NCBI RefSeq assembly: GCF_008065095.1
Contig: NZ_CP042911.1
Location: 8,190,001-8,222,000 of the forward strand
Source: Gemmata obscuriglobus
GTDB lineage: Bacteria; Planctomycetota; Planctomycetia; Gemmatales; Gemmataceae
Reading direction: 5' to 3'
DNA: 32,000 nucleotides
Below the pieces are notes generated by a model. It worked only from the letters and a program-made list of their open reading frames with translations. It was not told the origin of the DNA and made no database searches. A program made the translations under genes and the position numbers. Positions 1-21,414 of the stretch are shown here, piece after piece (the stretch's first letter is position 1; the number at the start of each line of letters is the position of its first letter).

Positions 1-831
1 ACGCTGTCCAGCGACCAACTCTCCGAGGAATACAACCGGGCGCGGGGCGAGTGGCTCGAACAGAACATGCTCATCGGTGAATACAACAAGCAGATTCAGT
101 CGTCGCCCCCCGAGGCCGACAAGCGACGGATCGAGGCCGACCGGTCGGTTGCGGAGGGTCGGCGCGATAAGGCGCGGGGCGACATGGAAGCCCTGGACCA
201 GCAGTACAACCGGGTCAGCACCGACCCGTCCGCGAAGGGCCAGGCGCACGGCCGCGGTCCCGGGTTCTTCCGGGCCAACGCCCCGGACTTCGGCTCGCTG
301 GCCCGCGCCGGCGGGGACCAGTGGACCGTCCTCAACAACGACAACCGCGAGAGCCTGCTCGGGCGCACCATGCGGCCCAACGAGGAGATGCTCCGGATCG
401 CCCACCTGGAAGGGCCGTGGCATCTCGAACTCAAGATCCCGCAGCGGAACGTGGGGCAGGTGCTACGGGCGTTCGCCGACCCGGCCCAGCACCTCACCGA
501 CCCCGACCGCGGCGGCCGCAAGTACCTCGAGGTGGACGTGATCCTGCGGAGCCAGGCTGCCACGCAGTACAAGGGCCGGCTGTACCGCGAGGACCTGATG
601 GCCGAGGCGGTGCCGAACAAGAACGAGCACGACGAGAACGAGCCCGTCGTGACCGCCTACGTCAAACTCAACATCGACGGCATTGATCCCGACAAGTGGA
701 TCCCGCGCGAGCAGTTGACGACTGGTCTGGAAGTGAACACCCGCATCCGGTGCGGCGACCACGCCCTCGGGTACACGCTGTTCCACGGCGTGTGGGAGTG
801 GTTCTACGAGAAGGTGATCTTCTTCTTCTAA
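1..831 (+). CDS. HlyD/membrane-fusion-protein-like periplasmic adaptor, C-terminal part (5' end outside window)
   Basis: Frame 1 is open from base 1, with no stop before the first listed Met at 67; stop at 829-831. A charged coiled-coil-like segment (EADKRRIEADRSVAEGRRDKARGDMEALDQQY) is followed by adaptor beta-barrel-type strands: WHLELKIPQRNVGQVLRAF, YKGRLYRED, VVTAYVKLN, GLEVNTRIRCG. GC3 is high. Confidence 0.6.
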   Translation, partial: TLSSDQLSEEYNRARGEWLEQNMLIGEYNKQIQSSPPEADKRRIEADRSVAEGRRDKARGDMEALDQQYNRVSTDPSAKGQAHGRGPGFFRANAPDFGSLARAGGDQWTVLNNDNRESLLGRTMRPNEEMLRIAHLEGPWHLELKIPQRNVGQVLRAFADPAQHLTDPDRGGRKYLEVDVILRSQAATQYKGRLYREDLMAEAVPNKNEHDENEPVVTAYVKLNIDGIDPDKWIPREQLTTGLEVNTRIRCGDHALGYTLFHGVWEWFYEKVIFFF

Positions 832-1000: not shown

Positions 1001-3073
1001 ATGCGTTCTCGCGTTCTCGCGTTCTCGCTCCTGTCGGCCGCGCTCGGCGGCCTACTCATCGGTTGTAGCCCCAAAAATACCAGTCCGGGCGGCAAAAACG
1101 GCCCCACGGACCCGCCGGCGCCGGTCGACCCCGGTAGCCCGCTCTGGGTCCCCGCGCCGCTGCCGGCCTCTGTCGCGGGCGTCGTCCGCGGCGAACCGCT
1201 GGTGGTTCCCAACTGCGTTGTCCAGTACGACGAGCGGCAGATCGTTTCGGCCGAGGTGGACGGCACCATTGAGCTTCTCGCCACGCCGTACACGCCGGGC
1301 GAACTGAAAGCTCTGATGGACGACCCGAAGCTCACCGAGCAGCAGAAGCGGGACCGCATCCTGTACCACCCGCGCGACACCGGGAACCCCAAGAAGCCGC
1401 TCAAGCGCATCCGCGAGAGCATGCCGGTTGAGGCGCGACAGATCGTCGCGTTCATGGACGACCAACTCGTCAGCGCCCGCATGGAGGGCGCGAAGCAGAT
1501 TAAAGACTCCGCGGTCAGCGCGAAGAAGAACTCGGAGGAGGGGGTCAAGGCGGCGGACGAGAAACTCCGCGTGACCGAGAAAACGATGGGGATCGCCGGC
1601 TCCCAGCGCGAGCGGCTCGACGACCTCATCACCCTGACGCGGTTCCGCGAGAACCAGGACCAAGCGGTCAGCCAGATCGCCAAGTCCGACGCGGACTACA
1701 AGGAAGCGGTGGTGCTGATGGGCCGGCACCAGATCCGGAGCGGGGTGAACGGCACCATCCGTACCATCGCCAAGCGGCCGGGCGAGTACGTGAAGGCCGG
1801 CGACAAGATCATGGAGATCGAGGGCACTGATAAGGTGCGGATCGAGGGCCAGCTCGACGTGCAGTACATCCGCGCGGTGCGGATCGGCATGGAGGTGATC
1901 GTCGAGCCGGCGCTGCCCAGCGCGCCGGAGGCGTCGCACAGCGGCCACCGGCAGGCGGTCACGGGGGTCACGGTCACCGCGCACCCCGACGGCCCGCTCG
2001 TCGTCTCGGTGGGGGCCGACGGCGCGGCCCTGGTGTGGGACCCGCCGCTGGCGAGCAAGAACGCGAACACCGCGGTGTCGGTGCCCCACAACCTGCCGCA
2101 CCCGGTCGGGGTGAAGAGCGTGGCGACCGCCACCGCCGCCGCCCGGACCGTGCTGGTCATCACCGGCGGCGACGACGGCAAGGTACGCGTGTGGGACGTG
2201 ACCAACCGCAAGCAGCTCCCGACCGCGCCGAAGGTGGTGGCCGAGGACGCGCACACGTCCGCGGTGCAGGCCATCGCGGTCAGCCCGGACGGCAAGTACT
2301 TCGCCACCGCCGCCGGCCGCGACGTGTTCGTGTGGGACCTGACCACCGTCAAAAAGATGTACGCGCTGCCGCTGGAGCACCGCGACTCGGTCACCGCGAT
2401 CAACTTCACCCCGCAGTGCACGCTGGTCACCGCCTCGAAGGACAACACCCTGAAGGTGTGGAAGGTTGGCGACAAGGGCGCGGCCGTGGCCCGCACCCTG
2501 GACCACCGGGCCGGTGCGGTCGACGTGCTGGGGGTGAGCAGCGACGGCGCCCGCGTGCTGTTCGACCAGGACAAGGGCCGGCTCGACCTCGTGGACCCGT
2601 CGAACGGGCAGACGGTGGGCCAGATCCAGAACATGGGCTCGGCCGGCGCGTTCTCGACGCTAGCGGTGTTCGAGCCCAACGCCGACGGCGCGAAGGGCGA
2701 CCCGAACCGGCCGCACCTCCTGGCGACCGCGGGCGGGGACGGCGACCTGAAGGGGACGGTGCAGGTGTGGCAGGCGCCGCGGAGCGGGCGCGGCTCGGAA
2801 GTCGGGCGGCTCATCACCCCGGGCCGGGTGCCGGTGACCACGGCCGCGTTCAGCCCGGTCCGCGGCGAGCGGTTCCTGGCTGTGGGCACCAGCAGCGGCG
2901 CGATCCACCTGTGGAAGCCGCCGTCCGAGGCCCGCAAGACTCACACCGGCCGCATCGTCAACATCGACGCCACCGACGCCCGGTACGTCACGGTGCGGGT
3001 GGAACTGGACAACCGCGAGCTGCAACTGATCGACCACAGCATCGCGAACGTGATCATCCCGTCCGACAAGTGA
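1001..3073 (+). CDS. Lipoprotein: HlyD-type adaptor with an internal seven-repeat WD40 beta-propeller
   Basis: ATG at 1001 is preceded by AGAGGA. Lipoprotein signal with lipobox LLIGC. Adaptor lipoyl halves are IVSAEVDGTIELL and IRSGVNGTIRTIAKRPGEYVKAGDKIMEI, separated by a long charged helical hairpin. Seven WD-like units end in VWD, VWDV, VWDL, KVWKV, LDLVD, VQVWQA and IHLWKP. The C-terminal strand TGRIVNIDATDARYVTVRVELDN...IANVIIP resembles the end of the adaptor barrel. Confidence 0.8.
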   Translation: MRSRVLAFSLLSAALGGLLIGCSPKNTSPGGKNGPTDPPAPVDPGSPLWVPAPLPASVAGVVRGEPLVVPNCVVQYDERQIVSAEVDGTIELLATPYTPGELKALMDDPKLTEQQKRDRILYHPRDTGNPKKPLKRIRESMPVEARQIVAFMDDQLVSARMEGAKQIKDSAVSAKKNSEEGVKAADEKLRVTEKTMGIAGSQRERLDDLITLTRFRENQDQAVSQIAKSDADYKEAVVLMGRHQIRSGVNGTIRTIAKRPGEYVKAGDKIMEIEGTDKVRIEGQLDVQYIRAVRIGMEVIVEPALPSAPEASHSGHRQAVTGVTVTAHPDGPLVVSVGADGAALVWDPPLASKNANTAVSVPHNLPHPVGVKSVATATAAARTVLVITGGDDGKVRVWDVTNRKQLPTAPKVVAEDAHTSAVQAIAVSPDGKYFATAAGRDVFVWDLTTVKKMYALPLEHRDSVTAINFTPQCTLVTASKDNTLKVWKVGDKGAAVARTLDHRAGAVDVLGVSSDGARVLFDQDKGRLDLVDPSNGQTVGQIQNMGSAGAFSTLAVFEPNADGAKGDPNRPHLLATAGGDGDLKGTVQVWQAPRSGRGSEVGRLITPGRVPVTTAAFSPVRGERFLAVGTSSGAIHLWKPPSEARKTHTGRIVNIDATDARYVTVRVELDNRELQLIDHSIANVIIPSDK

Positions 3074-3164: not shown

Positions 3165-5432
3165 ATGGCCAACGACCTCATCGCGAACCTGAACAACCCC
3201 GCCGAGCGCCGCAAGTCGGTGCGGCTGCGGGTGCGCCCCGACCTGCAGTCGTTCGAGCAAAAGTACGAAGGGAAGACGTTCACCGTCATCAAGGACCCGG
3301 TGTGCCTGCGGTACTACCGGTTCAGCCGGCAAGAGCACTTCGTGTTCGGCCTGTTCGACGGCAAGCACACGATGGAGGAGGTGCAGGAGGCGTTCGAGGA
3401 GGAGTTCAAGCCGATGCGGCTGGAACTCGCGGACCTGGAGGGGTTCGCCCGCCAGTTGGTGACCGCGGGGCTGGTGCAGAACGAGCAGCCCGGGGCCGCC
3501 CGGCACCTGTTCGAGCGCCGCGCCAAGCAGCGCCGCATGCGGCGGCTCGCCACGGTCAGCAACATCCTGTACCTGAAGATCCCGGTCTTCGACCCGGACC
3601 GGCTGCTCACGTGGATGTACGGCTACCTGCGGTGGGTCTTCACCGCCTGGTTCTTCGCGGCCAGCGTGGGGCTGATGCTCGCCGCGATCGTGCACGTGAC
3701 GCTCCACTACAACACGTTCCAGGCGAAGCTGCCCGCGTACCAGGAGTTCTTCACCTGGAACTCGGTGCTGTACATGTGGCTGTCGCTGGGCGTGGTGAAG
3801 GTGATCCACGAGTTCGGCCACGGGCTGAGCTGTAAGGCGTTCAAGGGCGAGTGCCACGAGATGGGCGTCTTGCTCATGTGCCTCTCGCCGGCGCTGTACG
3901 CGAACGTGACCGACGCGTGGACCCTGGCGGACAAATGGAAGCGGATCATCATCAGCTTCGCCGGCATCTACGTGGAGCTGGTGATCGCGTCGATCGCCAC
4001 GTTCGTGTGGTGGTACACGCCCGCGTACCCGACCGCCAACAACATCGCGCTGTGCATCATGGTGCTGTGCTCGGTGAGCACCGTCATGTTCAACGCCAAC
4101 CCGCTGATGCGGTTCGACGGGTACTACATGCTCGCGGACTGGCTGGAGGTGCCGAACCTGCGGGAGAAGGCGAACCGGTTCCTCAACAACCTGTTCCTGT
4201 CGAAGTGCCTGGGGGTGGACGTGCCGCCGGAGGCGTACATGGCCCCGTGGCGCAAGTGGCTGTTCGTCATCTACGCGGTGGGGAGCTGGGTGTACAAGTG
4301 GGTGGTGACGTTCAGCATCCTGTGGTTCCTGGCGGACTTCATGGGACCGAAACTGAAGGTGCTGAGCCAGATGCTGGCGCTCATGTCGCTGGCGTCGGTG
4401 TTCGTGTTTCCGACCTACAAGGTGATCAAGAACATCCGTCAACGGGGGCGGTTGCCAGACATGAAAGCGGCACGAGTTTACATCACGCTCGCCGTGTTCG
4501 CGGCGTTCGTGGCGGCGTTCTTCTTCCTGCCGCTGCCCGTGAGCCGGGTGCACGAAACGGGTTTGGTCGCGATCGACCCGGAGCACCTCGAAGGGGTCAT
4601 GCTGTCCGAGCCGGCGCGGCTGGTGAAGCTGGAGGGCGCGAGCCCCGGGCAGGCGGTGCGCAAGGGGCAACTCCTGGGCACCTTTGAGAGCACGGCGCTG
4701 GAGATCGAACTGGCCAAGGCGAAAGCGGCGCGGGCGACCCAGCAGCAGACGGCCGACATGCTGAACAAGAAGGTGCTCAAGGCCCAAGGCGCCGGCGACG
4801 CCGCGAACGAGCAGCGGTTCCTGAACGAGTACGTGCGGGCCAAGGCGCAGGCCGACACCGCCGAACGGGACGTGGCCCGCCTGCTGAAGCGCCAGATCGG
4901 GGTGCGGGAGCTGCGGGCCACGCGCGACGGGACGCTCATCACCGCCCCCAAGCGCGACGAGATCGGCAAGCTGTTCGACAAGGGGTACACCGAAACGACC
5001 CCGGTGTTCTCGGTCGGCGACCCGCTGAAGCTGGTGCTCAAAGTGCCGGTGACGCCCTACGACTATCGCTTGCTCAAGGAGGACCTGACGGCGCGCAGCG
5101 AGCTGGACGTGTCGGTGTGCGTGAAGGGCCGAAGCGACCGCACATTCAGCGGCAAGGTCCACCGCGACAAGCTGCCGGCCCAGAACGCGGCGACGATACC
5201 GCTGGCCCTGAGCCAGCGGGGCGGCGGCTCGCTGGCGGTGAAGCCGAACGAAGACCCGAACCTGCTGGCGCCGCTCGCACAGGTATACCTGGTCGAGGTC
5301 GAAATGACCGACCCGGACACCGCGATCGACCCGGGGCAGCTCGTGAGCGTGAAGATCCACTCGCGGTGGCGGAGCGGGGCGTGGTGGGTGGCCCGAGAAC
5401 TGTCCAACGCGCTCGACATTGGTCTGTATTGA
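3165..5432 (+). CDS. Peptidase M50 (site-2-protease-like) membrane metalloprotease fused to a C-terminal HlyD-type adaptor domain
   Basis: HEFGH zinc motif at 3807-3821. Second M50 motif NANPLMRFDG at 4092-4121. Several hydrophobic helices surround both motifs. The C-terminal third has adaptor features: a coiled coil (LEIELAKAKAARATQQQTADMLNKK...), then LRATRDGTLITAP, LKLVLKVPVTPYDYRLL and IDPGQLVSVKI. I prefer the ATG at 3165 (MANDLIANL) over the listed start at 3078, which would run through the hairpin and almost abut the upstream stop. Confidence 0.8.
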   Translation: MANDLIANLNNPAERRKSVRLRVRPDLQSFEQKYEGKTFTVIKDPVCLRYYRFSRQEHFVFGLFDGKHTMEEVQEAFEEEFKPMRLELADLEGFARQLVTAGLVQNEQPGAARHLFERRAKQRRMRRLATVSNILYLKIPVFDPDRLLTWMYGYLRWVFTAWFFAASVGLMLAAIVHVTLHYNTFQAKLPAYQEFFTWNSVLYMWLSLGVVKVIHEFGHGLSCKAFKGECHEMGVLLMCLSPALYANVTDAWTLADKWKRIIISFAGIYVELVIASIATFVWWYTPAYPTANNIALCIMVLCSVSTVMFNANPLMRFDGYYMLADWLEVPNLREKANRFLNNLFLSKCLGVDVPPEAYMAPWRKWLFVIYAVGSWVYKWVVTFSILWFLADFMGPKLKVLSQMLALMSLASVFVFPTYKVIKNIRQRGRLPDMKAARVYITLAVFAAFVAAFFFLPLPVSRVHETGLVAIDPEHLEGVMLSEPARLVKLEGASPGQAVRKGQLLGTFESTALEIELAKAKAARATQQQTADMLNKKVLKAQGAGDAANEQRFLNEYVRAKAQADTAERDVARLLKRQIGVRELRATRDGTLITAPKRDEIGKLFDKGYTETTPVFSVGDPLKLVLKVPVTPYDYRLLKEDLTARSELDVSVCVKGRSDRTFSGKVHRDKLPAQNAATIPLALSQRGGGSLAVKPNEDPNLLAPLAQVYLVEVEMTDPDTAIDPGQLVSVKIHSRWRSGAWWVARELSNALDIGLY

Positions 5433-10360: not shown

Positions 10361-10365
10361 AAGTG

Positions 10366-11712
10366 ATGACACGGTTCGCCGTCGCGCTGCTCGCGGTTTC
10401 TGTTGCGACGCCGGCGGGCGCCGCGGAGAAGGCTCCGGCGCCCGCGGAGCGCGGCTACCAGGCGCTCACGCGCACCGCGTTCATACCGGCGTTCTGGACC
10501 CGGCTCGCGCTGCCCAACGCCTGGAAGAGCTGGGACGTGGGCGAGCGCCCCGCGGACTACGACCGGGCGGTTCTGGAGCGCTACGGGTTGCACGCCGCGC
10601 CGTACCCCAACGACGGCCTACCGATGGGGCTGCGCAAGGCACCGTTGCTCCTCAACACCGGCGTCGGCATCGACTGCATGCTGTGCCACGGCGGCTCGAT
10701 CTTTGGGAAGAGCTACGTCGGGCTCGGGAACAGCACGCTCGACATTCAGGCGCTGTTCGAGGACATGGCGCGGGCCGAGGGACTGACGCCGAAGCTGCCG
10801 TTCACGTTCTCGAACGTCCGCGGCACCACCGAGGCCGGTGGGTTCGGCGTGTACCTGCTCGGGTTCCGCAACCCGGACCTCAGCCTCCGCACCCCGCGGA
10901 AAGAATTGGGGCTGCACGACGACCTGTGCGAGGACGTGCCCGCGTGGTGGCTGATGAAGAAGAAGCGCACCATTTACTACACCGGGGCCACCGACGCGCG
11001 GTCGGTGCGCACGCTGATGCAGTTCATGATGCACCCGCTCACCACCGCGAAGGACTTCGACAAGCACGAGCCGGCGTTCCGCGACATCTCCGCATACCTC
11101 GCGAACCTCGAACCGCCGAAGTACCCGTTCCCGATCGACGCGGCGAAAGCGGCCAAGGGCGAATCGCTCTTCAAACAGCACTGCGCCACGTGCCACGGCA
11201 CCTACGGTGCGAAGTGGACGTACCCGAACAAGGTGATCCCGCTCGCGGAGATCGGCACCGACCCGGCGCGGCACCGGGGCATCAGCGCCGACTACGGCAA
11301 GGAGTACTCGGAGTCGTGGTTCGGGAAGGAGGAGAGCGGCGGGTGGTTCGTGAACGGGAAGCGGCTCCGCTGGACCGACGGCTACCAGGCGCCGCCGCTG
11401 GACGGCGTCTGGGCCACGGCGCCGTACCTCCACAACGCGAGCGTGCCCACCCTCGACGGGGTGCTGAACTCGAAGGGGCGGCCGAAGCTGTACACACGCA
11501 GCTACAAGACCGACGAGGCGAACTACGATCCGGTGCGTGTGGGCTGGAAGGTGACCGAGTTGGGCGCCGTGCCCGGCAAGCTGAGCGCGCACGAGTCGCG
11601 AAAGATCTACGACACCTCGAAGCCCGGTCGGAGCAACGCCGGCCACACCTACGGCGACGACTTCAGCGCCGATGAGCGCGCCCAGGTGATCGAGTACCTC
11701 AAGACGCTGTAA
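10366..11712 (+). CDS. Secreted di-haem c-type cytochrome family protein
   Basis: Signal peptide MTRFAVALLAVSVATPAGAAE. Two CxxCH haem-binding motifs: CMLCH at 10675-10689 and CATCH at 11182-11196. Strong SD upstream. Confidence 0.75.
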   Translation: MTRFAVALLAVSVATPAGAAEKAPAPAERGYQALTRTAFIPAFWTRLALPNAWKSWDVGERPADYDRAVLERYGLHAAPYPNDGLPMGLRKAPLLLNTGVGIDCMLCHGGSIFGKSYVGLGNSTLDIQALFEDMARAEGLTPKLPFTFSNVRGTTEAGGFGVYLLGFRNPDLSLRTPRKELGLHDDLCEDVPAWWLMKKKRTIYYTGATDARSVRTLMQFMMHPLTTAKDFDKHEPAFRDISAYLANLEPPKYPFPIDAAKAAKGESLFKQHCATCHGTYGAKWTYPNKVIPLAEIGTDPARHRGISADYGKEYSESWFGKEESGGWFVNGKRLRWTDGYQAPPLDGVWATAPYLHNASVPTLDGVLNSKGRPKLYTRSYKTDEANYDPVRVGWKVTELGAVPGKLSAHESRKIYDTSKPGRSNAGHTYGDDFSADERAQVIEYLKTL

Positions 11713-11911: not shown

Positions 11912-13636
11912 TCAAAACTCCATCTCGCGGAGCGATTTCGCCCCCGCGCGGAGCGGCAGCACCGCCGCCGCCGCGCCCAGAACCAGCCCCACCGGGATGC
12001 CCGCGTACACCCACGGGTTGATTTTGGCCGCCCCCGCGGTCGCGCCCTTCGCGAGCTGGGCCACGTGGAACGGCACCACCATCACGCCGATGACGGCGAC
12101 CAGGAACGCGAGCCCGGTCACCATGTTCACGGTGCCGCCGAACCCGACCACGATCTTCGACGGGTCCGTCTCGCGGAACGTCGGTAGGTACGCGCCCAGG
12201 CCCACGTTCAGCGCGCTCAGCCCCAGGGCCGCCACCGCCACCGCCACGGCGTGCAGCGCCAGCCCTTCGAGCGGCAGCCCGAGGAGCGCGTCGCTGGTCA
12301 GGATGAGCGCCTCGGCCACGACCAGCGACCCGGTCGCCGCGAACGCGAACTTGCCCCACAGGATCTGGTCGCGGCTCACCGGGGTGAGCCCCAGGATCCA
12401 GAACTTCCGCCCCTCCAGCGAGATCAGCGGGAACACGAACCGGCTCAGCCCGGCGCACAGGAGGATCGCCGTCCCGCTCAGGTTCATGAGGCTAATGGCG
12501 TACTTGTCCATGATGCCGAGGTCGGCGGAGTAGTACTGCCGGAAGTTGCTGGCCCCGATCAGCATCAGCACGCCGAAGATGGCCAGCACGGCCCACTGGG
12601 TCGGGTCGCGCCGGAAGGTGCGAAAGTCCTTCACCACCAGCACGCGCGTCCGGCGGTCGAGGTAGCACACCAGCGCCTCCATGAGCCGGTCGAGCGGGCT
12701 CGTCTTGTAGACCTTCTTGTCGCGCCCGAAGGCGGAGAGGCGGTCGTAGGCGGTGCGGTACACGCGCTTCGCGACCCACGCCGCGCCCAGGAAGCACAGC
12801 AGCCCGTTGCTCCACACCTGGGCCAGCGGGACGAGCGCGGCGGCGAGGTCCCCGCGGGCCGCGGCCATCACGCCGCGGGTCATCCAGTGGCTCGGCGAGA
12901 ACCCGCTGCGGAGCAGGTCGAACTGGCCGATCAGGTCGTCCAGCTCCCGCCCGCTGCTCACCAGCGACCGGCGGAACCCCACGAGAATTCGGTAACCCCA
13001 GAACAGCAGCCCGGCGGCGACCACGAGCCCCACGAGCGCGAAGAACTGCTTGCGGTTCCGCGGCATGTACCGCACCAGCAGGAGGCACCCCGCGGCCGAC
13101 ACCGAGCCCGGCAGGATGACGTACCCGAGCAGGTACAGCGGCAGCAGCGGGTAGAAGTACCACGGCACGCCGGACATGAGCCCGTAGGCCACGAAGATGG
13201 GCACGCCGAGGATCACGAAACCCCACGAGCTGAACGTTACCGCGGCCTGGAACTTGGTGACGAAGATCTGGTCGGCGCGGGCCGGCGAGCACAGCAAGAA
13301 CCGCGCCTCGGGGCTGGTGAACAGGCTTGCATAGAGGATGATGCCGGTCGAGAAGATGAGCATCGTCCCGAGCGTGAAGAACAGCAGCTCGAAGAGCGCC
13401 TCGACGATGGCCCCCTTGAACGGGATGTTGTTCACCCGGAGCTGGTTGAACAGGTACAGGCTGACCGCGAACGTGAACGCCGCGACCACGGCGCTGGTGG
13501 CGATCATGGTGACGAGCCGCACGCGGCCGTTCTCGAGCGCGACGCGCAGCCCGTTGCGGAACAGTTGCAGCCGCAGGCGCCGGAACAGGGCCGCTTGCGC
13601 GGGCGCCGCCGGCCGGGCGTCGATGGTTGGGGACAT
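11912..13636 (-). CDS. ABC-2 / putative ABC-exporter type polytopic permease
   Basis: ATG at 13636 (MSPTIDARP...). About 12 hydrophobic helices in two halves. It lies 41 nt downstream of the ABC ATPase gene. The listed 861-aa ORF continues upstream only by reading out of frame across the ATPase gene. Confidence 0.75.
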   Translation of the reverse strand: MSPTIDARPAAPAQAALFRRLRLQLFRNGLRVALENGRVRLVTMIATSAVVAAFTFAVSLYLFNQLRVNNIPFKGAIVEALFELLFFTLGTMLIFSTGIILYASLFTSPEARFLLCSPARADQIFVTKFQAAVTFSSWGFVILGVPIFVAYGLMSGVPWYFYPLLPLYLLGYVILPGSVSAAGCLLLVRYMPRNRKQFFALVGLVVAAGLLFWGYRILVGFRRSLVSSGRELDDLIGQFDLLRSGFSPSHWMTRGVMAAARGDLAAALVPLAQVWSNGLLCFLGAAWVAKRVYRTAYDRLSAFGRDKKVYKTSPLDRLMEALVCYLDRRTRVLVVKDFRTFRRDPTQWAVLAIFGVLMLIGASNFRQYYSADLGIMDKYAISLMNLSGTAILLCAGLSRFVFPLISLEGRKFWILGLTPVSRDQILWGKFAFAATGSLVVAEALILTSDALLGLPLEGLALHAVAVAVAALGLSALNVGLGAYLPTFRETDPSKIVVGFGGTVNMVTGLAFLVAVIGVMVVPFHVAQLAKGATAGAAKINPWVYAGIPVGLVLGAAAAVLPLRAGAKSLREMEF

Positions 13637-13677
13637 GGGCCACCAGTGGGTGTGAGGGGCGGGCCGGGTCAGACGCG

Positions 13678-14427
13678 CTACGCGAGGGGCAGCGCCGGCT
13701 GCGGCGCGTCTTCCTCGGTGATCTTCATGAACAGGTCTTCCAGGCTGCCGTCCATCGCGGCCTGTTTGCGCAGGTCGGTCAGTGTGCCGCACCCGAGGAG
13801 CGTGCCGCGGTCCAGAATCCCGATGCGGTCGGCGAGCTCCTGGGCGATGTCGAGCGTGTGCGTGCTGAGGAACACCGTCATCCCCTCGGCCGCGAGCCGG
13901 CGGAGCAGCGTTTTCAGCTCGCGGATGCTCTTCGGGTCGAGCCCCACGGTCGGTTCGTCGGCGATGAGCAGCTTGGGCTCGTGCACCAGCGCCGCGGCGA
14001 ACACGGTGCGCTGGCGCATCCCGTGCGAGTACCGCTCGGTGAGGTCGTCCACGAACTCGTTGAGGTGGAACAGCTCGATCACCTCCTCGATCTTGTCCGC
14101 GGACCGGCCCGGGGGCATTCCGTACAGGTCCGCGGTGAACTGGAGGAACTCGCGGCCGGTGAGCTTCTCGTACAGGAACGGCTGGTCGGGGACGTAGCTG
14201 ACGAGCGCGCGGGCCTGGTCGCCCTGGGCGCGCACGTCGAACCCGCCGATGCGGACGCTCCCCGTGGTGGGGAACAGGAGCCCGCAGAGCATCTTGATGG
14301 TGGTGGTCTTCCCGGCCCCGTTCGGCCCCAGGAACGCGAACAGTTCGCCCGCGGGCACGTGCAGGGTAAGATCCCGCACCGCGACCTTCGGGCCGTAGAG
14401 CTTCGTGACGGTGTCGATTTGGATCAT
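13678..14427 (-). CDS. ABC transporter ATP-binding protein
   Basis: Start MIQIDTVTKLYG at the ATG at 14427. Walker A GPNGAGKTT, signature-like YSHGMRQR, Walker B LLIADEPTVGLD, H-loop LSTH. Confidence 0.9.
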   Translation of the reverse strand: MIQIDTVTKLYGPKVAVRDLTLHVPAGELFAFLGPNGAGKTTTIKMLCGLLFPTTGSVRIGGFDVRAQGDQARALVSYVPDQPFLYEKLTGREFLQFTADLYGMPPGRSADKIEEVIELFHLNEFVDDLTERYSHGMRQRTVFAAALVHEPKLLIADEPTVGLDPKSIRELKTLLRRLAAEGMTVFLSTHTLDIAQELADRIGILDRGTLLGCGTLTDLRKQAAMDGSLEDLFMKITEEDAPQPALPLA

Positions 14428-14446
14428 GGTAAACTCGCTCCGAAGA

Positions 14447-14477
14447 CCCACCCCCACCCCTCCTAAAGGGAGGGGAG
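14447..14477. repeat. G/C-homopolymer palindromic element, solo unit (copy C)
   Basis: CCCACCCCCACCCCTCCTAAAGGGAGGGGAG resembles the left unit of copies A and B. It lies in the 66-nt gap between the DUF559 stop (14494) and the ABC ATPase start (14427). Confidence 0.65.
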
Positions 14478-14493
14478 CGAGACAGGCGGGCAC

Positions 14494-14880
14494 TCATCCG
14501 GCCGGTGATCCCGTAGCTGCTGCGATGCGTTCCGCACAGGCCGCGGCGATGCGATCAAGGACGGTCGTGATGCTCTCGGTCACATTTTCGTTGCGGAACC
14601 GCAGGACAAGCAGGCCGAGCATGGCGAACGCCTGATCGCGAGCCGCGTCGTACTCGACCTGGGTGTCGTGAACGCCGCCGTCCACCTCGACAACGACGCC
14701 GGCGGCGTGGCAGTAGAAATCGGCGACGAACCCGTGAACGATCTGCTGGCGGCGGAAATGGAGGCCGTTTAATTTCGACGCACGGAGGTGCGACCACAGG
14801 ACTTGTTCGGCCGGAGTCATTTCGCGGCGGAGCCGGTACGCGAGTTCGCGCTTGGCCGGATCAACGGCTTGTCCGGTCAC
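14494..14880 (-). CDS. DUF559 (Vsr-like) endonuclease domain protein
   Basis: Family-typical AKRELAYRLRREMTPAEQVLWSHLR...GLHFRRQQIVHGFVADFYCHAAGVVVEVDGGVHD...RD...LGLLVLRFRNENV. I prefer the GTG at 14880 because it retains the conserved ARxLRR helix (alternative ATG at 14820). The listed start at 15162 reads through repeat copy B. Confidence 0.75.
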   Translation of the reverse strand: MTGQAVDPAKRELAYRLRREMTPAEQVLWSHLRASKLNGLHFRRQQIVHGFVADFYCHAAGVVVEVDGGVHDTQVEYDAARDQAFAMLGLLVLRFRNENVTESITTVLDRIAAACAERIAAATGSPAG

Positions 14881-14911
14881 GAGGTGCGGCACGGGCGGGC
14901 GGCGCGAAGAA

Positions 14912-15132
14912 CCTACCCCCCCGGCCCCCCTCCCTAAAGGGAAGGGGGAGTCCGGTTGGCTCGCCTCCTGCGCACCGGACTCGCTATCGGCGCACGAAGG
15001 TTCATACTCACCTTCTGCCCCGGGAAGGGTGGGACGCGTCGCACCTGCTTCTGGCGCGCCAGGTTTGCTATCGGTGCACGAAGGTTCGATCTCCCCCCTT
15101 CCCTTTAGGGAGGGGGGGCCGGGGGGGGTAGG
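14912..15132. repeat. G/C-homopolymer palindromic element, composite copy B
   Basis: CCTACCCCCCCGGCCCCCCTCCCTAAAGGGAAGGGGGAG (14912-14950) is a near-perfect reverse complement of CTCCCCCCTTCCCTTTAGGGAGGGGGGGCCGGGGGGGGTAGG (15091-15132). An internal direct repeat (GCTATCGGCGCACGAAGGTTCATACTCACC and GCTATCGGTGCACGAAGGTTCGATCTCCCC) marks an extra degenerate unit. Confidence 0.85.
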
Positions 15133-15165
15133 TCTTGGCGCCCGGGGCTTGCGTGCACACATCCC

Positions 15166-16044
15166 TCAATCCTCCCGCTCGAACCGGAGCGCCTCACCCC
15201 CCTCGAACGCCTCCTGGCGCAGCACCTTCCCGTCGCGCACCTGGACCCACGTGCGGGCGATCGCGTCCTCCTTGCGGCGGTACTCGATCACCCAGCACGG
15301 GATGTCCTGGTTCTGCCAGCTCAAGACGCGAGGCTCGCCCGCCACCTCCGCGAGCAGCGGCTCCTTCGGCTTCGCCGCGCCGAGCGGCAGCCCGCTCTTG
15401 GCGAGCTGCTTGCGAATGAGGTCCGCGAGCGCGTCCTGGAGCGGGTTGTACTCGTGAACCACCCACGAGCGCATCCCGCCGTGTATCCCCGCGATCCGGT
15501 TCACCGGCTGCAACGGGTTCAGCGGCTGCCCCTGCCGCACCGGGACCGGTTCCAGATCGGCCTCGAAGTCGCCGAACGAGCTCTTCACCGACCCGTGGCC
15601 GGTCAGCGTGCCGCCGCTGACGGTCCCGCGGACGTCGATCTGCCCCCCGAACCGCGACTTGCCCGCGACCACTTCCAGCTTCCCGCTCAGCGCCTGCTCC
15701 TTGAAGTCGCCGGCGCGGGTCATGCGCACGTCCGAGGTGGCGTCCGGTACCTCCAGGGCGACGCCGCCCTGTTCGAGCCGGAGCTTGCTGTACCGGTAAG
15801 TGAACTGGAACTCGTCGGTCGCGTCGTCGTACTTCATCAGCGTGGTCAGCTTCCCGATGGGCTGCCCGTTGCGGTACAGGGTCCACTTCGCGGGGACGTT
15901 CTGCTTCGCCTCGTCGGCCAGTTCGATGGCGACCGGGGGCGGCCCGGACGCGAACAGCCGCGGCCACACGTCCCGGTACGCGACGTACCCGGTGGTGGCG
16001 ATCCAGAACGCGACGATCCCCGCGACGGCAATACGCGGCGGCAT
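15166..16044 (-). CDS. Membrane-anchored hypothetical protein
   Basis: ATG at 16044 is preceded by AGGTGA. N-terminal TM helix IAVAGIVAFWIATTGYVAY. High GC3. The listed 781-aa ORF extends upstream only as the antisense of ald. An alternative start MMKS lies at 16130. Confidence 0.6.
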   Translation of the reverse strand: MPPRIAVAGIVAFWIATTGYVAYRDVWPRLFASGPPPVAIELADEAKQNVPAKWTLYRNGQPIGKLTTLMKYDDATDEFQFTYRYSKLRLEQGGVALEVPDATSDVRMTRAGDFKEQALSGKLEVVAGKSRFGGQIDVRGTVSGGTLTGHGSVKSSFGDFEADLEPVPVRQGQPLNPLQPVNRIAGIHGGMRSWVVHEYNPLQDALADLIRKQLAKSGLPLGAAKPKEPLLAEVAGEPRVLSWQNQDIPCWVIEYRRKEDAIARTWVQVRDGKVLRQEAFEGGEALRFERED

Positions 16045-16212
16045 GAGGTCACCTGCGACAGGAACCGGCGAGACGTGGCGCCTTCCCAATCCTAGGTAAC
16101 TGACGGCGCGGGGGGCAACCGATTTCATCATGAGAGCCGCGCGACTTGATTCACTCCCCCGCAGCCCCACAATGCCTCTACACACCTCTCCGTTGAATTT
16201 CCGAGGCCATTC

Positions 16213-17316
16213 ATGATTGTCGGCGTTCCGAAAGAAGTGAAGCAGGACGAGTACCGGGTGGCGATGGTGCCCGCGGGCGTGGAAGAGCTGACCCGGGCGG
16301 GGCACACGGTGCTCATCCAGAGCGGCGCCGGCGCGGGGTCCGGCATCAGCGACGACCAGTACGCCGCGACCGGCGCGCAGATCGTGTCGAACGACGCCGA
16401 GGTGTGGGCGCGGGCGGACCTGATCGTGAAGGTGAAGGAGCCGATGCCGTCCGAGTGGCCCCACATGCGCGCGGGCCAGACGGTGTTCACCTACTTCCAC
16501 TTCGCGGCCGACCGGCACCTGACCGAGGCCGTCCTGAAGTCGGGCATCACCGCCATCGCCTACGAGACCATCCGCGACGCGAAGGGCACCCTGCCGCTGC
16601 TCACCCCGATGAGCGAGGTGGCGGGGCGCATGAGCATCCAGGAGGGCGCGAAGTACCTGGAGCGCCCGTTCGACGGCCGCGGCATCCTGCTCGCCGGCGT
16701 CCCCGGCGTGCCGCCGGCCACGGTTTCGGTCATCGGCGCGGGGGTGGTGGGTGCGAACGCCGCCCGGGTCGCGGCGGGGCTGGGCGCGAACGTGTTCATC
16801 CTCGACGTGAACCTGGACCGGCTGCGGTACATCGACGACGTGATGCCGCAGAACGTGACCACGGTGTTTAGCAACCGGCTGAACATCCGCGAGTGCCTCC
16901 AGTTCTCGGACCTTGTTATCGGGGCGGTGCTGATCCCGGGCGCGAAGGCCCCGAACCTGGTTACGCGGGACGACCTGAAGTACATGCTCCCGCGGGCGGT
17001 GGTGATCGACGTGGCGATCGACCAGGGCGGGTGCTTTGAGACGAGCCGCCCGACCACGCACGCGAACCCGACCTACATCGTGGACGACATCGTTCACTAC
17101 TGCGTCACGAACATGCCCGGGGCGGTGGGCCGCACCAGCACCTACGCCCTCACGAACGTGACCCTTCCTTACGCGATGCAACTGGCCAGCAAGGGGCCGG
17201 AACGGGCCGTGAAGGAGAGCCCGGCGCTGCTGGCGGGCGTCAACATCAAGGCCGGGAAGGTGACGAACCAGGCCGTGGCCGAAACCTTCGGCCTGGAGTG
17301 CGTGCCGGCCGTGTAA
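16213..17316 (+). CDS. ald: Alanine dehydrogenase
   Basis: Full-length match by eye to the Ald family: MIVGVPKEVKQDEYRVAMVPAGV..., NAD fold VIGAGVVGANAA, ...DVAIDQGGCFETS...HYCVTNMPGAV. Confidence 0.92.
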   Translation: MIVGVPKEVKQDEYRVAMVPAGVEELTRAGHTVLIQSGAGAGSGISDDQYAATGAQIVSNDAEVWARADLIVKVKEPMPSEWPHMRAGQTVFTYFHFAADRHLTEAVLKSGITAIAYETIRDAKGTLPLLTPMSEVAGRMSIQEGAKYLERPFDGRGILLAGVPGVPPATVSVIGAGVVGANAARVAAGLGANVFILDVNLDRLRYIDDVMPQNVTTVFSNRLNIRECLQFSDLVIGAVLIPGAKAPNLVTRDDLKYMLPRAVVIDVAIDQGGCFETSRPTTHANPTYIVDDIVHYCVTNMPGAVGRTSTYALTNVTLPYAMQLASKGPERAVKESPALLAGVNIKAGKVTNQAVAETFGLECVPAV

Positions 17317-17422
17317 GGCAAATGAAGGAACATCCGCGGCGCGGGCGAGCACAGTACGAGCGACAAGCCTGTCTCTGTTGCATCGAACCGCGCTCGCCCG
17401 CGTCGCGCTGCGGATCGAAATC

Positions 17423-17908
17423 ATGTCCGACCTCGCCCGACAGCTCTTCGGCGCGGACGCGCCGCCCAAACGGCTGGCGCTGATCGTCGATCTTGACGAC
17501 ACGGTCTGCACCAGTTTCGCGTGCCCGCTGCGTGCGGCGCTCGACGTGCTCGCGCGCCTCCACCGACAGAAGGTCGAAGTTCACTACGTCACAGCCCGTA
17601 CCGACGTGAGCCGCCGCGGGACGGAGGACTTCCTGGCGGAGTACCGCCTGCCGGGCTACCGCAACGTCCACTACTGCCCCAACTGGAAAAGCCCCCGGCG
17701 CCACAAAGCCGAGGCCCACGCGACCCTCGCCCGCGAGTACCGGGTGATCGCCAGCATCGGCGACACCGACGAGGAGGAGGGCGAGGCAGCGCGGCTCGCG
17801 GGCGTGCCGTTCGTGCTGGTCGACCGCGACAACCCGTCCACAGCCTGGGCGGCGCTCGCGGATCTGATCCTCGCCGCCGAGGGGTTCATTGTTGAGGAGA
17901 GTTCGTGA
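17423..17908 (+). CDS. HAD-superfamily phosphatase-like protein
   Basis: HAD motif I LIVDLDDTV (DxDxT), motif II YVTART, motif IV IGDTDEEEG. I prefer the ATG at 17423 over the TTG at 17378. Confidence 0.65.
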   Translation: MSDLARQLFGADAPPKRLALIVDLDDTVCTSFACPLRAALDVLARLHRQKVEVHYVTARTDVSRRGTEDFLAEYRLPGYRNVHYCPNWKSPRRHKAEAHATLAREYRVIASIGDTDEEEGEAARLAGVPFVLVDRDNPSTAWAALADLILAAEGFIVEESS

Positions 17909-18747
17909 GCGAAGCCCCGCAACGCTCACTCTGGCGCCGGGCGCGCCGGTGGGCCGTGCTCTTCCTGATCACCTACCTGGGGATCGTCATCGTGTTCTGG
18001 TTCCTCGAACGGCGGCTCGTCTTCGTCCCCACATCGACCCAGGAGGAGTGGCTGGAACCCGAAGACCGCCGCTCGCAAGATGTGTCGTTCGACTCGGCCG
18101 ACGGAAACAAAATCGCGGGGCGCTGGATTCCGCCGGAGACGCCGCACCACGGGGCCGTGCTGGTCGCGAACGGCAACGGCGGCAACCTCACACACCGCGG
18201 CGGGCTCGCGGCCGATTTGCGCCTGGCGACCGGCGCCGGGGTGCTGCTCTTCGACTACCCCGGTTACGGGAAGAGCAGTGGCACACCCTCCGAAAACGGG
18301 TGCTACGCGGCCGGCGAAGCCGCGTACAAGTGGCTCACAGACGAGCAGAAGGTCGCCACGAGCCGCATCATTCTGTACGGCGAATCGCTTGGCGGCGGAA
18401 CCGCGGTCGAACTGGCTACGAAGCGCGAGCACCGGGCGCTCGTTCTCATCTATACCTTTACCAGTCTGCCCGACGCCGCAAAGAACCGCTTCCCGTTCCT
18501 GCCGGCGAAAACGCTGATGCGCACCCGGTTCGACAACCTGTCCAAAATCGCGAAGTGCCCGCGACCGGTGTTCTTCGTTCACGGCAGGGCCGATACGGTG
18601 GTGCCGTTCAGCCACTCGGAGCAGCTCTACGTCGCGGCCAACCAGCCGAAGGAGTTCGTGCGACTCGACGGCATCGGGCATGTGCGGCTGCCCGGCGAAC
18701 TGTACCTGCCGGCGCTGGTATCGTTCCTGAACCGACACGCCCCCTGA
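17905..18747 (+). CDS. Alpha/beta hydrolase with N-terminal membrane anchor
   Basis: The GTG start overlaps the upstream stop (GTGA). TM helix WAVLFLITYLGIVIVFWFL. Nucleophile elbow GESLGGG. Acid and His regions VHGRADTVVPF and GIGH. Confidence 0.75.
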   Translation: MSEAPQRSLWRRARRWAVLFLITYLGIVIVFWFLERRLVFVPTSTQEEWLEPEDRRSQDVSFDSADGNKIAGRWIPPETPHHGAVLVANGNGGNLTHRGGLAADLRLATGAGVLLFDYPGYGKSSGTPSENGCYAAGEAAYKWLTDEQKVATSRIILYGESLGGGTAVELATKREHRALVLIYTFTSLPDAAKNRFPFLPAKTLMRTRFDNLSKIAKCPRPVFFVHGRADTVVPFSHSEQLYVAANQPKEFVRLDGIGHVRLPGELYLPALVSFLNRHAP

Positions 18748-18823
18748 TTGCCCTTCGCGCCGGTTTCGGTTCGCGTTATGTGCATGCCACTCATGGCCCA
18801 TTTCCGGCCCGGGAGGCTTCAGC

Positions 18824-19663
18824 ATGACGCGGTTCACGGTGTTCGCTCTTGCGTTCCTGGGCGCGGCGCCCGTTCTGGCGCAGCCCGCCCCCGCGGCGCC
18901 GCGGTTCAAGTGGGAGGCCGGGAAGGTCCACACGTACCGCGTCGTCCAGCAGACGATCGTGAAGGAAACGGTGCTGGACGAGAAGAGCGAAAAGCCGGTC
19001 GCGACGGAGGCCAAGACGAGCCTCGTTCTCGTGCGCAAGTGGACCGTGAAAGACGTTGACAAGCAAGGCGTTGCGACGCTCGAAATGAGCATCGCGGAGA
19101 TGAAGCAAGAGTTCCGCCAGCCGGACGGGAGCACCACGACCACCGACTCCGCGAAGCCCGAGGACGCGAAGGCGATGGCCGAGTACCTCAACAAGCCGAT
19201 CGTCACGGTCCGCATTGATGCGCAAGGCAAACTGGTCGAGGTGAAAGAAGCGAAGGGCGGGGCCGCGGCGCGGCTGCAAGCGGAGCTGCCGTTCCGCCTG
19301 GTGCTGCCGGACGCCGCTCCCGAGGCGGGCAAGACCTGGGACCGCCCGTTCGCGTTCAAGCTCGACCCGCCCGCCGGCACCGGCGAGAGCTACGACTTCA
19401 CCCAGAAGTACACCAACAAGGGCACGAAGGACGGTTACCTGATCGTGGGCGTGGAAACGGCGCTGAAGGCCCCGCCGAAGACCACCGGCGAGCAGGTGCC
19501 GCTCGTCCCGATGCTCTGGACCGGTGACGTGTACTTCAACACGAGTGCTGGCAAGTATCAGGCGTCGCGCCTCAGCGCGAAGGCCGAACTCGCCAACCAC
19601 CAGGGCGAGGGCACCAAGTTCGTGTACGAGAGCACCTACGCCGAAGACTGCCTGGACAAGTGA
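18824..19663 (+). CDS. Secreted hypothetical protein
   Basis: Signal peptide MTRFTVFALAFLGAAPVLAQPAPA. GGGAGG lies upstream of the ATG. High GC3 and no recognisable motif. Confidence 0.6.
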   Translation: MTRFTVFALAFLGAAPVLAQPAPAAPRFKWEAGKVHTYRVVQQTIVKETVLDEKSEKPVATEAKTSLVLVRKWTVKDVDKQGVATLEMSIAEMKQEFRQPDGSTTTTDSAKPEDAKAMAEYLNKPIVTVRIDAQGKLVEVKEAKGGAAARLQAELPFRLVLPDAAPEAGKTWDRPFAFKLDPPAGTGESYDFTQKYTNKGTKDGYLIVGVETALKAPPKTTGEQVPLVPMLWTGDVYFNTSAGKYQASRLSAKAELANHQGEGTKFVYESTYAEDCLDK

Positions 19664-19773: not shown

Positions 19774-20872
19774 GGCAGGCCATTCACGATGGGGGGCGCC
19801 TTTGTTTTGGTTGCCGCTTTGCGACTGACAGGTCTCTTTTTCGTCAGCTAATAACCGAGCAGTCGATACATGTTTTCTCGTGTATTCTATGCGCTCGAGT
19901 TTATTTTTTGTGGGCATTCGCGCGGGTGCTTTTTTAACCTTGTTCAGGTTAATCTTCTCGGCCCAGGCGCGCAGCAGTTGGTCCAGTTCGGCGCCCGACA
20001 TGGTTCCGAACGCGGCCCATTCGGTGGGCGGGAGGGCGATCATCATGCCCGTGTACACGGTCGCCAACTCGAGGGCCATGTAGTACCCGGGCACCTGGCT
20101 CGCGACCACATCCGCCCCATGTACCGCCCGCCTCGCGGCCTTGAGCACCGCCAGCACGTTGTACCCACCACTTCCACCGCGAACCCGAACAGCGCGGCCT
20201 TCGGATACCCGCGTGTGTTCACCTCGCACCGCCGCGCCACGGTCAACTCGTGGAACGCGCCTTCGATGGCCACCGACCCCGATACAGGACCGCCACCACC
20301 GCCGCGACCGCCTCGTCCTCCGGCACGTCGGCCAGGATCTCGATCTCCGCGTCCCCGTCTCCGGTCGGATGGTCCAACCGCACCCGCACGCAGCGCACCC
20401 GCGGCACCGGCTCCCCGCCCACGCACACCCACACCGGTCGCTCGCTCACCCACCCGGTATCGGTGCGCACTTCCGGGGTCCATTCCCCGGCCGGGTCGAG
20501 TGTGGTGGTCCCGTGTCGGCGGATCGCGAAGAACGCATCGTGGCACCGATCCGCCACATGCCGCACCAGCTCCGCCGACACCGCCGCCTCGATGTTCTGC
20601 AGCTTCTCGTACACCGACTTCAGGGAGGCCGGGATCCGATCGGCCATCTGCTGATACGCCGACTGCACATGATGCGCCTTGCCGCACACCACCGCACCCA
20701 TCAGCTCCACCACCGTGGAGAACAGCAGCTCTCGCGTGTACACGCGCTCCGCCACCCGCGCGAACAGCGCGTCCAGGGCCGAAGCCGATAGCACGTGCTC
20801 GATGCTGGCCCGTGACATGACGTTCAACGGGCTCTCGCTAATGAACCGCTCGAGCACCGCGCCAAGAATCAT
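19774..20872 (-). pseudogene. IS4-family transposase, disrupted by at least two frameshifts
   Basis: Frame 1 (20872-20243) ends ...AVLYRGRW. The motif continues in another frame as (A)IEGAFHELTVARRCEVNTRGYPKAALFGFAV, near 20265-20175. A third frame then carries GYNVLAVLKAARRAVHGADVVASQVPGYYMALELATVY...AEKINLNKVKK. YRGRW-x-IE is the Y-x2-R-x3-E signature of IS4-type DDE transposases. Confidence 0.65.
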
Positions 20873-21052: not shown

Positions 21053-21269
21053 CCTTCGTCCGCACGTCTACATCGACCTTGCGGTCCTTATCGTTGGCTC
21101 CCTTTCCGCGCCCCTGAATGTCAACATCCGCGCCGGGCGTGCGAATGCGGATATCGGTTTCTTTTTCGCGTGCAGCAGGGGGCGTGCTCGGCGCCGGTCG
21201 CTCACACCCAACGAGCATAACGAGCGCAAAGGTAGCGGCAGTTAGAACCGTGGCGCGAACCGGCTTCAT
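21045..21269 (-). CDS. Small lipoprotein (74 aa)
   Basis: ATG at 21269 with AGGAG 7 nt upstream. Signal plus lipobox MKPVRATVLTAATFALVMLVGC. Charged repetitive mature part (DIRIRTPGADVDIQGRGKGANDKDRKVDVDVRTKDR). Confidence 0.65.
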   Translation of the reverse strand: MKPVRATVLTAATFALVMLVGCERPAPSTPPAAREKETDIRIRTPGADVDIQGRGKGANDKDRKVDVDVRTKDR

Positions 21270-21414
21270 TTGTGGCTCCTGCATATCGATGCGTTCTCAA
21301 AACGATGGCCCCCCGGCCACGACTGCAACCGGCGCGCCGAACCAACTGGGGTTCACTTTCGCCCCGCCAGAACGCGATACTAAATGCGTCGCCTTCTGTG
21401 CCCGCAGGTTCTCA

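Follow-up and report, generated by a model that had tools for sequence, protein, structure and literature searches.

The evidence supports the insertion of a seven-bladed WD40 propeller into the beta-barrel, between strands 3 and 4, of a HlyD-like periplasmic adaptor lipoprotein of 690 amino acids (aa) from Gemmata obscuriglobus. The adaptor is encoded near the left end of a 32,000-nucleotide (nt) stretch of contig NZ_CP042911.1 (positions 8,190,001 to 8,222,000 of the forward strand; the whole stretch is referred to below as the window). Five lines of evidence converge on this topology: profile searches with the propeller spliced out, alignments with MacA, CusB and EmrA, relatives that lack the insert, residue covariation, and two AlphaFold2 (AF2) models. 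The adaptor itself comprises a lipoyl domain, an alpha-helical hairpin and a six-stranded beta-barrel, without a membrane-proximal domain. The gene is the middle one of a conserved three-gene cassette, and we consider it likely that the lipid-anchored adaptor, with its inserted propeller, serves as a docking platform in a multi-adaptor periplasmic assembly. An earlier note, made from the sequence alone, had listed a lipobox, a first lipoyl half, a hairpin, a second lipoyl half, the start of a barrel, a propeller and a tail; all are present in that order.

Insertion in the barrel

Mapping of the domain borders with hidden Markov models (HMMs), which the earlier note had proposed along with a structure prediction, yielded matches to WD40, HlyD_3, HlyD_D23 and Biotin_lipoyl. 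In the intact protein, the Pfam matches to HlyD_3 (E = 7e-11) and HlyD_D23 (E = 4e-8) cover residues 245-337 and 240-315, respectively. Because the unspliced adaptor profile matches end near residues 303-337, a linear reading looks like an adaptor followed by WD40, that is, a simple end-to-end fusion with a C-terminal WD40 domain in which the last 46 residues would be a propeller extension or an unrelated tail.

In a splice test, residues 307-644 were deleted and residues 1-306 joined to 645-690. The HlyD_3 score rose from 39.4 to 52.5 bits (+13) and its profile span from 2-59 to 2-96 of 106 positions; HlyD_D23 rose from 27.8 to 48.1 bits (+20), with the span growing from 106-168 to 106-208 of 214. 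RND_mfp (34.9 to 46.8 bits, +12) and CzcB (28.2 to 42.8 bits, +15) gained as well, and the extension is colinear. With control tails (8 shuffled, 1 reversed, and a native 46-residue stretch taken from blade 1), HlyD_3 scored 39.0-42.9 and HlyD_D23 27.4-29.9 bits. Since the true tail extends the adaptor profiles whereas shuffled tails do not, we take the tail to be part of the adaptor barrel, against the expectation from a fusion.

A profile built from 25 spliced family members and compared with the PDB crosses the junction colinearly with MacA (4dk0; profile positions 86-273 aligned with residues 48-236), CusB and EmrA, and by these alignments the junction falls within the strand 3-4 loop. The family profile performed better than the single spliced sequence, for which phmmer returned only marginal PDB matches.

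The same place in the barrel is occupied by a short loop in adaptors that lack the insert. An exhaustive HMMER search with residues 60-306 as the query identified insert-less adaptors of 290-361 aa, namely, P0276, P0268, P0212, P0250 and P0270. In these proteins, strand 3 is followed by about 10 residues and then by the motif G-x-[IV]-x-x-[IV]-[DE]...[KR]-[IV]-W-A-E-[VL]-x-N...G, which is shared with the post-propeller tails. The loop of about 10 residues at the propeller's place in P0268 is PTGGAAQHQIIT, and in P0212, the HlyD_3 match runs unbroken across profile positions 2-103 (Pfam). Because MAFFT wrongly aligned the tails of insert-less adaptors with blade 1, tail homology was assessed with a dedicated HMM made of post-propeller tails only, from 63 divergent representatives. 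This HMM matches the insert-less adaptors right after strand 3, at 22-35 bits, and also matches ordinary RND (resistance-nodulation-division) membrane-fusion proteins; the homology of the tail to the C-terminal part of the barrel in both groups speaks against a fusion. When the spliced profile was used in a word-indexed search, the matches were mainly fragments, and none was a close relative lacking the insert.

The AF2 model, run on a 72-sequence alignment, has a predicted local distance difference test score (pLDDT) of 86.1 and a predicted TM-score (pTM) of 0.71, and the tail strands are modelled at pLDDT 78-91. From the N-terminus onward, the model has strand 67-76, lipoyl half, hairpin, lipoyl half, strand 278-286, helix, strand 298-303, seven blades (311-638) and three tail strands, so that all six barrel strands and the helix 287-292 are present in the predicted secondary structure. 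Removal of the tail would leave the barrel with three of its six strands, which is difficult to reconcile with a fusion. A replicate on P0203, which is about 26% identical in the adaptor N-terminal part, gave the same order at pLDDT 92 and pTM 0.80; thus, by secondary structure and confidence values, the two models have the same topology, with confident tail strands. Foldseek with the full AF2 model found only WD40 proteins among the best 50 matches listed and is uninformative on the barrel.

Mean-field direct coupling analysis of 227 family members (effective sequence number 172; 26,816 pairs) placed V74-V279, which connects strands 1 and 2, at rank 2; I281-V684 (z = 6.5), which connects strand 2 to the last tail strand, at rank 3; and 653-668, in the tail hairpin, at rank 4. 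The second of these pairs joins the two parts of the barrel across the propeller, contrary to a fusion. Among 72 homologues, the insert is 317-347 aa long and the tail 43-53 aa; this retention of tail length in the Gemmata clade, along with a family-wide median of 54 aa, likewise argues against a fusion. The end-to-end fusion is, in our assessment, effectively refuted and highly improbable.

The claim of the earlier note that the propeller is a domain insertion is therefore upheld, and so are its two premises. The N-terminal half is HlyD-like, judging by the matches to HlyD_3, HlyD_D23, RND_mfp, CzcB and EmrA and by the lipoyl-hairpin-lipoyl-barrel order in the AF2 model, and the segment past residue 644 belongs to the adaptor barrel, as indicated by the splice test, the tail HMM and the I281-V684 pair. 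The note had described a single closing barrel strand; a barrel segment does follow the propeller, but it consists of three strands (Table 1).

The inserted propeller

The Pfam WD40 model (PF00400) matches the protein with E = 4.6e-28 and 96.9 bits against a cut-off of 27, and four stretches are individually significant. In the AF2 model, the insert folds into seven four-stranded blades, with an N-terminal strand (311-313) available for closure. Foldseek aligns it over about 340 columns, with target-normalised TM-scores of 0.80-0.85, with seven-bladed propellers (RACK1, WDR5 and T. curvata 5yzv), and covariation links the first blade to the last (325-625, 337-639 and 336-635). At the level of the model, these results show a complete, closed, seven-bladed propeller. 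The seven repeats of the earlier note are borne out as blades, but its repeat signature is not universal: six of the seven end in W[D/K/Q] (W346, W398, W445, W487, W590 and W638), whereas blade 5 ends in LVD. The interval it had marked, nt 1943-2920 (residues 315-640), lies inside the WD40 region but falls short of the full propeller, residues 307-644.

The linkers are short, conserved and Pro-rich, with PSAP at the entry and WKPP at the exit. From these linkers, the median 6-residue gap, the pTM values of 0.71-0.80 and the covariation pairs 300-323 and 303-322, we infer that the propeller is rigidly held. It presumably shares the compartment of the adaptor, that is, the periplasm. Conservation within the protein is highest in the propeller, with a mean maximum residue frequency of 0.57 versus 0.49 in the adaptor N-terminal part and 0.47 in the tail; 55 positions conserved at 85% or more, among them R396, R503, D515, D522, Q588, R597 and E600, reside in the propeller, compared to 12 in the adaptor N-terminal part and 4 in the tail.

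Family and distribution

More than 120 full-length homologues share 47-94% identity with the protein. The gene is found in at least 35 species-level genomes, all Gemmatales-type, that belong to Gemmata, Frigoriglobus, Urbifossiella, Limnoglobus and metagenome-assembled genomes (MAGs) of Gemmataceae and Planctomycetota. The complete layout of N-terminal adaptor part, WD40 domain and tail is present in 73 of 149 representatives at 50% identity (median tail, 54 aa). Many more clusters come from a second, more divergent clade, the profile of which gives 593 matches at E <= 1e-30, a number inflated by generic WD40 proteins: the upper 105 or so of the 120 listed matches align over most of their length (about 600-800 aa), and the lowest ones listed are WD40-only proteins of 1,000-1,190 aa. 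The few named matches to this clade come from Gemmatales or Planctomycetes.

An artefact of assembly or annotation, or a pseudogene, merging two genes could be suspected from the unusual architecture alone. The gene, however, is one uninterrupted open reading frame (ORF), an identical protein is encoded on 4 contigs, one of which is a 9.03-Mb G. obscuriglobus contig, and the layout recurs, with conserved junction motifs, in the 35 species genomes and in hundreds of metagenomic clusters. This conservation refutes an artefact, the chance of which we regard as negligible.

Database entries are labelled either 'HlyD family efflux transporter periplasmic adaptor subunit' or 'WD40 repeat protein/biotin carboxyl carrier protein'. 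Given that annotation pipelines pair both domain names, the co-occurrence has already been seen, but not the insertion topology. Our literature search for a WD40-containing adaptor found no description of one, and the accessible parts of a 2021 Chem Rev review mention no domain insertion of this type in adaptors; as far as the literature searched shows, there is no characterised adaptor with this layout, as the earlier note had surmised.

Gene and domain map

The ORF product is 100% identical to the G. obscuriglobus protein P0001 (Table 1). Its N-terminus, MRSRVLAFSLLSAALGGLLIGC, has a positive n-region and a hydrophobic core followed by the lipobox LLIGC, and a lipoprotein signal peptide is predicted; G21 and C22 are unchanged across the 72 homologues, and the signal-peptide segment is the sole hydrophobic stretch in the protein. 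The first lipoyl half, quoted in the earlier note as IVSAEVDGTIELL, is found in the protein and is tied to the second half by the covariation pairs 85-242, 87-266 and 91-268. The helices of the hairpin are about 40 residues each. The second half, GVNGTIRTIAKRPGEYVKAGDKIMEI, matches Biotin_lipoyl over residues 244-273, and the barrel start, VRIEGQLDVQYIRAVRIGMEVIVEP, follows where the note had placed it. A conserved VEP closes the segment 278-303 directly before the insertion, and the post-propeller tail reads TGRIVNIDATDARYVTVRVELDN...ANVIIP. Promoter and terminator scans yielded nothing beyond the shuffled expectation.

By Pfam, the protein is a member of the HlyD/adaptor superfamily, with both superfamily-level models, HlyD_3 and HlyD_D23, above their cut-offs, and it is outside every curated adaptor subfamily: none of the NCBIfam cut-offs for RND_mfp, CzcB, EmrA, type_I_hlyD and NHLM_micro_HlyD is reached. 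The best of these scores, that of RND_mfp, is about 35 bits for the intact and 46.8 for the spliced protein, with a cut-off of 94.9.

Table 1. Features of the WD40-inserted adaptor gene and its cassette neighbours (nt positions in the window)
Feature	Position	Strand	Basis
Complete gene of the WD40-inserted adaptor lipoprotein, 690 aa and stop	1001..3073	+	ORF list, Pfam
Signal peptide and lipobox LLIGC (residues 18-22, nt 1052-1066)	1001..1066	+	Sequence; Cys22 predicted lipidated
Pro-rich tether between lipid anchor and folded domains	1067..1180	+	pLDDT <50 at residues 14-39
Beta-barrel strand 1, residues 67-76	1199..1228	+	AF2 strand; V74-V279 covariation
First lipoyl (barrel-sandwich) half, residues 79-152	1235..1456	+	AF2 strands 79-83, 88-92, 133-136, 148-152
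Alpha-helical hairpin, helices 155-195 and 202-242	1463..1726	+	AF2 pLDDT 84-96; aligns with MacA hairpin
Second lipoyl half, residues 244-275	1730..1825	+	Biotin_lipoyl/Biotin_lipoyl_2 at 244-274; HlyD_3 match begins
Barrel strand 2 (278-286), helix (287-292), strand 3 (298-303)	1832..1909	+	AF2; HlyD_3/HlyD_D23 matches end here
Seven-bladed WD40 propeller, residues 307-644, between barrel strands 3 and 4	1919..2932	+	Pfam, AF2, Foldseek
Barrel strands 4-6, residues 645-690 (648-656, 662-670, 681-686)	2933..3070	+	Splice test, alignments, tail HMM, covariation
Upstream cassette gene, GAF-transmembrane-HlyD-like, C-terminal 276 codons; start beyond the left edge of the window	1..831	+	Frame open from nt 1
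Downstream cassette gene, S2P/M50-like HExxH metalloprotease with C-terminal HlyD-like domain, 784 aa	3078..5432	+	NCBIfam/Pfam

Two further features of the adaptor stand apart from the insertion. The disordered tether contains the motif GxPL[YWF]xP (residues 45-51, nt 1133-1153), with pLDDT of about 84 at residues 41-50. L48 is invariant, the motif is kept in both clades of the family, and the insert-less P0212 has a similar GLPLLPE; this motif could dock onto the propeller or a neighbouring subunit. Separately, the first lipoyl half harbours an excursion of about 35 residues (approximately 97-132, nt 1289-1396) that consists of two helices (101-106 and 113-119), a strand (120-122) and the conserved motif YHPRD. 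It is missing from the insert-less relatives and gives this protein a second insertion, smaller than the propeller.

The three-gene cassette

The upstream gene, for which the ORF list gives an internal ATG at position 67, encodes a product 56% identical to residues 467-738 of a 738-aa Frigoriglobus protein that contains a GAF domain (E = 2.8e-5), one transmembrane-like segment and a weak RND_mfp match (E = 9e-8). The downstream protein (hereinafter, M50-HlyD) carries the motif HEFGH (nt 3807-3821) and transmembrane-like segments, and matches Peptidase_M50 (E = 7.5e-8), RND_mfp (residues 524-693), daptide_HExxH (E = 1.4e-50; 172.6 bits against an equivalog cut-off of 300) and YydH/LiaK (E = 3e-12), with a weak PqqD-like match at residues 87-133. 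Its true start is probably near nt 3165 because homologues align from query residue 27-33 onward. Identity across genomes is higher for the M50-HlyD gene (61-99%) than for the WD40 adaptor (40-90%). The TMcin preprint on HExxH S2P-like proteases of peptides that are ribosomally synthesised and modified post-translationally (RiPPs) is only loosely related.

A GAF-HlyD gene upstream and an M50-HlyD gene downstream accompany the adaptor at all 35 genome loci, wherever the contig reaches, and the same three-gene order is seen in Frigoriglobus, in a distant MAG and in the divergent clade (a Gemmatales MAG). Other lineages have a plain adaptor of about 310-360 aa in the same cassette slot, and the insert-less P0276 and P0212 sit in the same GAF / HlyD / M50-HlyD cassette. 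At the P0310 locus (metagenome 3300047160), two genes come after the cassette, one for a SecA_DEAD/SecA_PP_bind protein of 673 aa and the other for a protein of 585 aa without a Pfam match.

Kamneva, Poudel and Ward (2015; PMC4452313) described a conserved GAF-HlyD / Peptidase_M50-HlyD / HlyD module of uncharacterised function as 'secondary SecA_DEAD-associated, type-I-secretion-like', suggested that it forms a secretion conduit, and pointed out that its SecA_DEAD gene may be encoded elsewhere in the genome; WD40 is nowhere mentioned in their paper. The cassette described here is the Gemmatales version of that module. Because the insert-less P0276 and P0212 fill the same slot, the WD40 adaptor is the small-adaptor component of the module that has gained a propeller, and through the P0310 locus the WD40-adaptor family is connected with the 'secondary SecA' module. 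The three cassette adaptors were also considered as paralogues, a claim that was dropped when the family HMMs missed the other two.

Possible functions of the adaptor and its cassette

The assembly that we consider likely can be outlined by analogy with the hexameric rings of MacA and AcrA and the heteromeric TriA/TriB. Three adaptor-like periplasmic domains would assemble above the membrane domain of the metalloprotease, with the propeller rigidly held at the membrane-proximal ring of barrels. In that position, it would offer a docking surface to a conserved partner or cargo in the periplasm, the partner being, most simply, another cassette component or the cargo of the system. Because no other part of the protein is as conserved as the propeller, partner binding is probably the essential role of this domain.

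Several observations weigh against this scheme. In the PDB, the spliced profile has only weak matches (MacA E = 7e-4), and the covariation signal becomes noise past about rank 10, so that the 5-10 or so pairs above it count as supporting evidence only. The closure of the barrel and the orientation of the propeller are deduced from predicted secondary structure, confidence values, profiles and one covariation pair, and the co-assembly of the three cassette adaptors from analogy only; family HMMs detect no similarity among the three adaptor-like proteins. The cassette contains no gene for an ATP-binding cassette (ABC), RND or major facilitator superfamily (MFS) transporter or for an outer-membrane factor, either here or in the related loci examined, and a Pfam scan of 22 ORFs in the window revealed neither SecA_DEAD nor an outer-membrane factor. 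With no transporter or outer-membrane-factor gene in the cassette and no SecA_DEAD in the window, the conduit function of the assembly remains a proposal only.

These gaps in the gene content bear on a different possibility, namely, that the cassette is a device for regulated intramembrane proteolysis or peptide maturation rather than a transport conduit. Under such a scenario, catalysis would fall to the HExxH/M50 protein, the HlyD-like domains would form a cage or gate in the periplasm, and the propeller would sense or present the substrate in the manner of the PDZ domains of RseP, with GAF providing cytoplasmic regulation. Within the cassette, the M50-like protease, which is related to RiPP leader peptidases, is indeed the sole core that is enzymatic or membrane-embedded; the weak PqqD-like match, the GAF sensor domain of the upstream protein and the lack of an adjacent transporter or outer-membrane-factor gene fit as well. 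The NCBIfam matches, however, are far under the equivalog cut-offs (172.6 vs 300 bits), a precursor-peptide gene was not identified, the presence of three distinct adaptor-type domains that have long hairpins is a hallmark of envelope-spanning tubes, and the SecA_DEAD ATPase at some loci (PMC4452313) suggests energised translocation. We regard a proteolytic or maturation device as possible, albeit on the less probable side.

An ordinary drug or metal efflux adaptor that serves an RND, ABC or MFS pump whose gene lies elsewhere, the propeller being an accessory decoration, is improbable. Such a role might be read from the database annotation 'efflux RND transporter periplasmic adaptor subunit', from the sub-threshold matches to RND_mfp, CzcB and EmrA, and from the ABC_tran_2 gene located 9 kb away within the window. 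Against it, the NCBIfam adaptor scores are far under their cut-offs even after splicing (46.8 vs 94.9 bits), the membrane-proximal domain that RND adaptors need is missing, and every locus tested is syntenic with GAF-HlyD and M50-HlyD, never with a pump; nor is the ABC_tran_2 gene present at the related loci shown.

More speculatively, and in our view rather unlikely, the cassette might encode an unrecognised envelope machine of Gemmatales, with a HExxH intramembrane metalloprotease as its inner-membrane core (powered by a SecA-like ATPase in some lineages), three different adaptors around it, and a ring of rigidly mounted WD40 propellers, provided by one of the adaptors, that would capture or hand over a specific protein or peptide cargo of the periplasm. 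If true, secretion or uptake coupled to processing would gain a new class of system, one without an ABC, RND or MFS pump core.

Whichever role it plays, a 338-residue interaction domain grafted into a barrel loop, and more conserved than its scaffold, shows that the adaptor barrel can act as a display scaffold. The GAF-HlyD / M50-HlyD / small-adaptor module, with or without SecA_DEAD, is functionally blank and widespread in Planctomycetes, Verrucomicrobia and Proteobacteria; used as bait, the propeller offers an experimental handle on its partner or cargo, and the insert-less relatives provide a natural loop in the propeller's place.

Other genes in the window

The gene mutL (21118-23610, +) overlaps by 4 nt with a gene (23607-25781, +) for a 724-aa PQQ_2/BamB-like beta-propeller, an unusual neighbour for mismatch repair. 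On the minus strand, a DUF559 (endonuclease-like) ORF (14494-15162) lies between ABC_tran_2 (11912-14497) and an ORF of 781 aa (15166-17511), with 4-nt overlaps or gaps; the 781-aa ORF has no Pfam match. The several other long ORFs without a Pfam match include 17926-19380 (-), 19870-20820 (+) and 29724-31574 (-). A RoxA-like dihaem cytochrome c is encoded at 10363-11712 (+) and a planctomycete-specific PSCyt1/PSCyt2/PSD1 protein at 26809-29160 (+); the antisense ORF over the latter (26782-29187, -) is probably spurious.

Comparison with known systems

The toolkit of periplasmic adaptors consists of the membrane-proximal domain, the barrel, the lipoyl domain and the hairpin, and varies mainly through the loss of modules or the length of the hairpin. 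The Gemmatales protein shares with MacA, AcrA, EmrA, CusB and HlyD the N-terminal anchor (a lipobox as in AcrA and MacA), the lipoyl domain split by the hairpin and the six-stranded barrel. As in these adaptors, the barrel is made of one N-terminal strand and the C-terminal strands, and the spliced profile is colinear with MacA 4dk0, CusB and EmrA. Unlike these adaptors, it contains a 338-residue propeller between barrel strands 3 and 4, lacks the membrane-proximal domain, has no pump or outer-membrane-factor gene nearby and falls under all curated subfamily cut-offs.

Periplasmic propellers that serve as protein-docking surfaces are represented by TolB and BamB, the latter also a lipoprotein. 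Those propellers are free-standing or terminal and have other types or numbers of blades, whereas the Gemmatales propeller sits inside an adaptor barrel. For more than one adaptor species per assembly, the precedent is TriA/TriB of TriABC-OpmH, and the fused TriAB chain (6vej) is a weak match of the spliced family profile. TriAB, however, works with an RND pump, and in contrast to that pair, three different adaptor-type proteins are proposed here to act together, of which two are fusions with GAF or M50 modules.

In the module of Kamneva et al. (PMC4452313), the counterpart is the small component of HlyD/biotin-lipoyl type (e.g., MexAM1_META1p2399), which occupies the same position in the cassette and has the same neighbours, including SecA_DEAD at some loci. 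The difference is that the Gemmatales protein carries a propeller.

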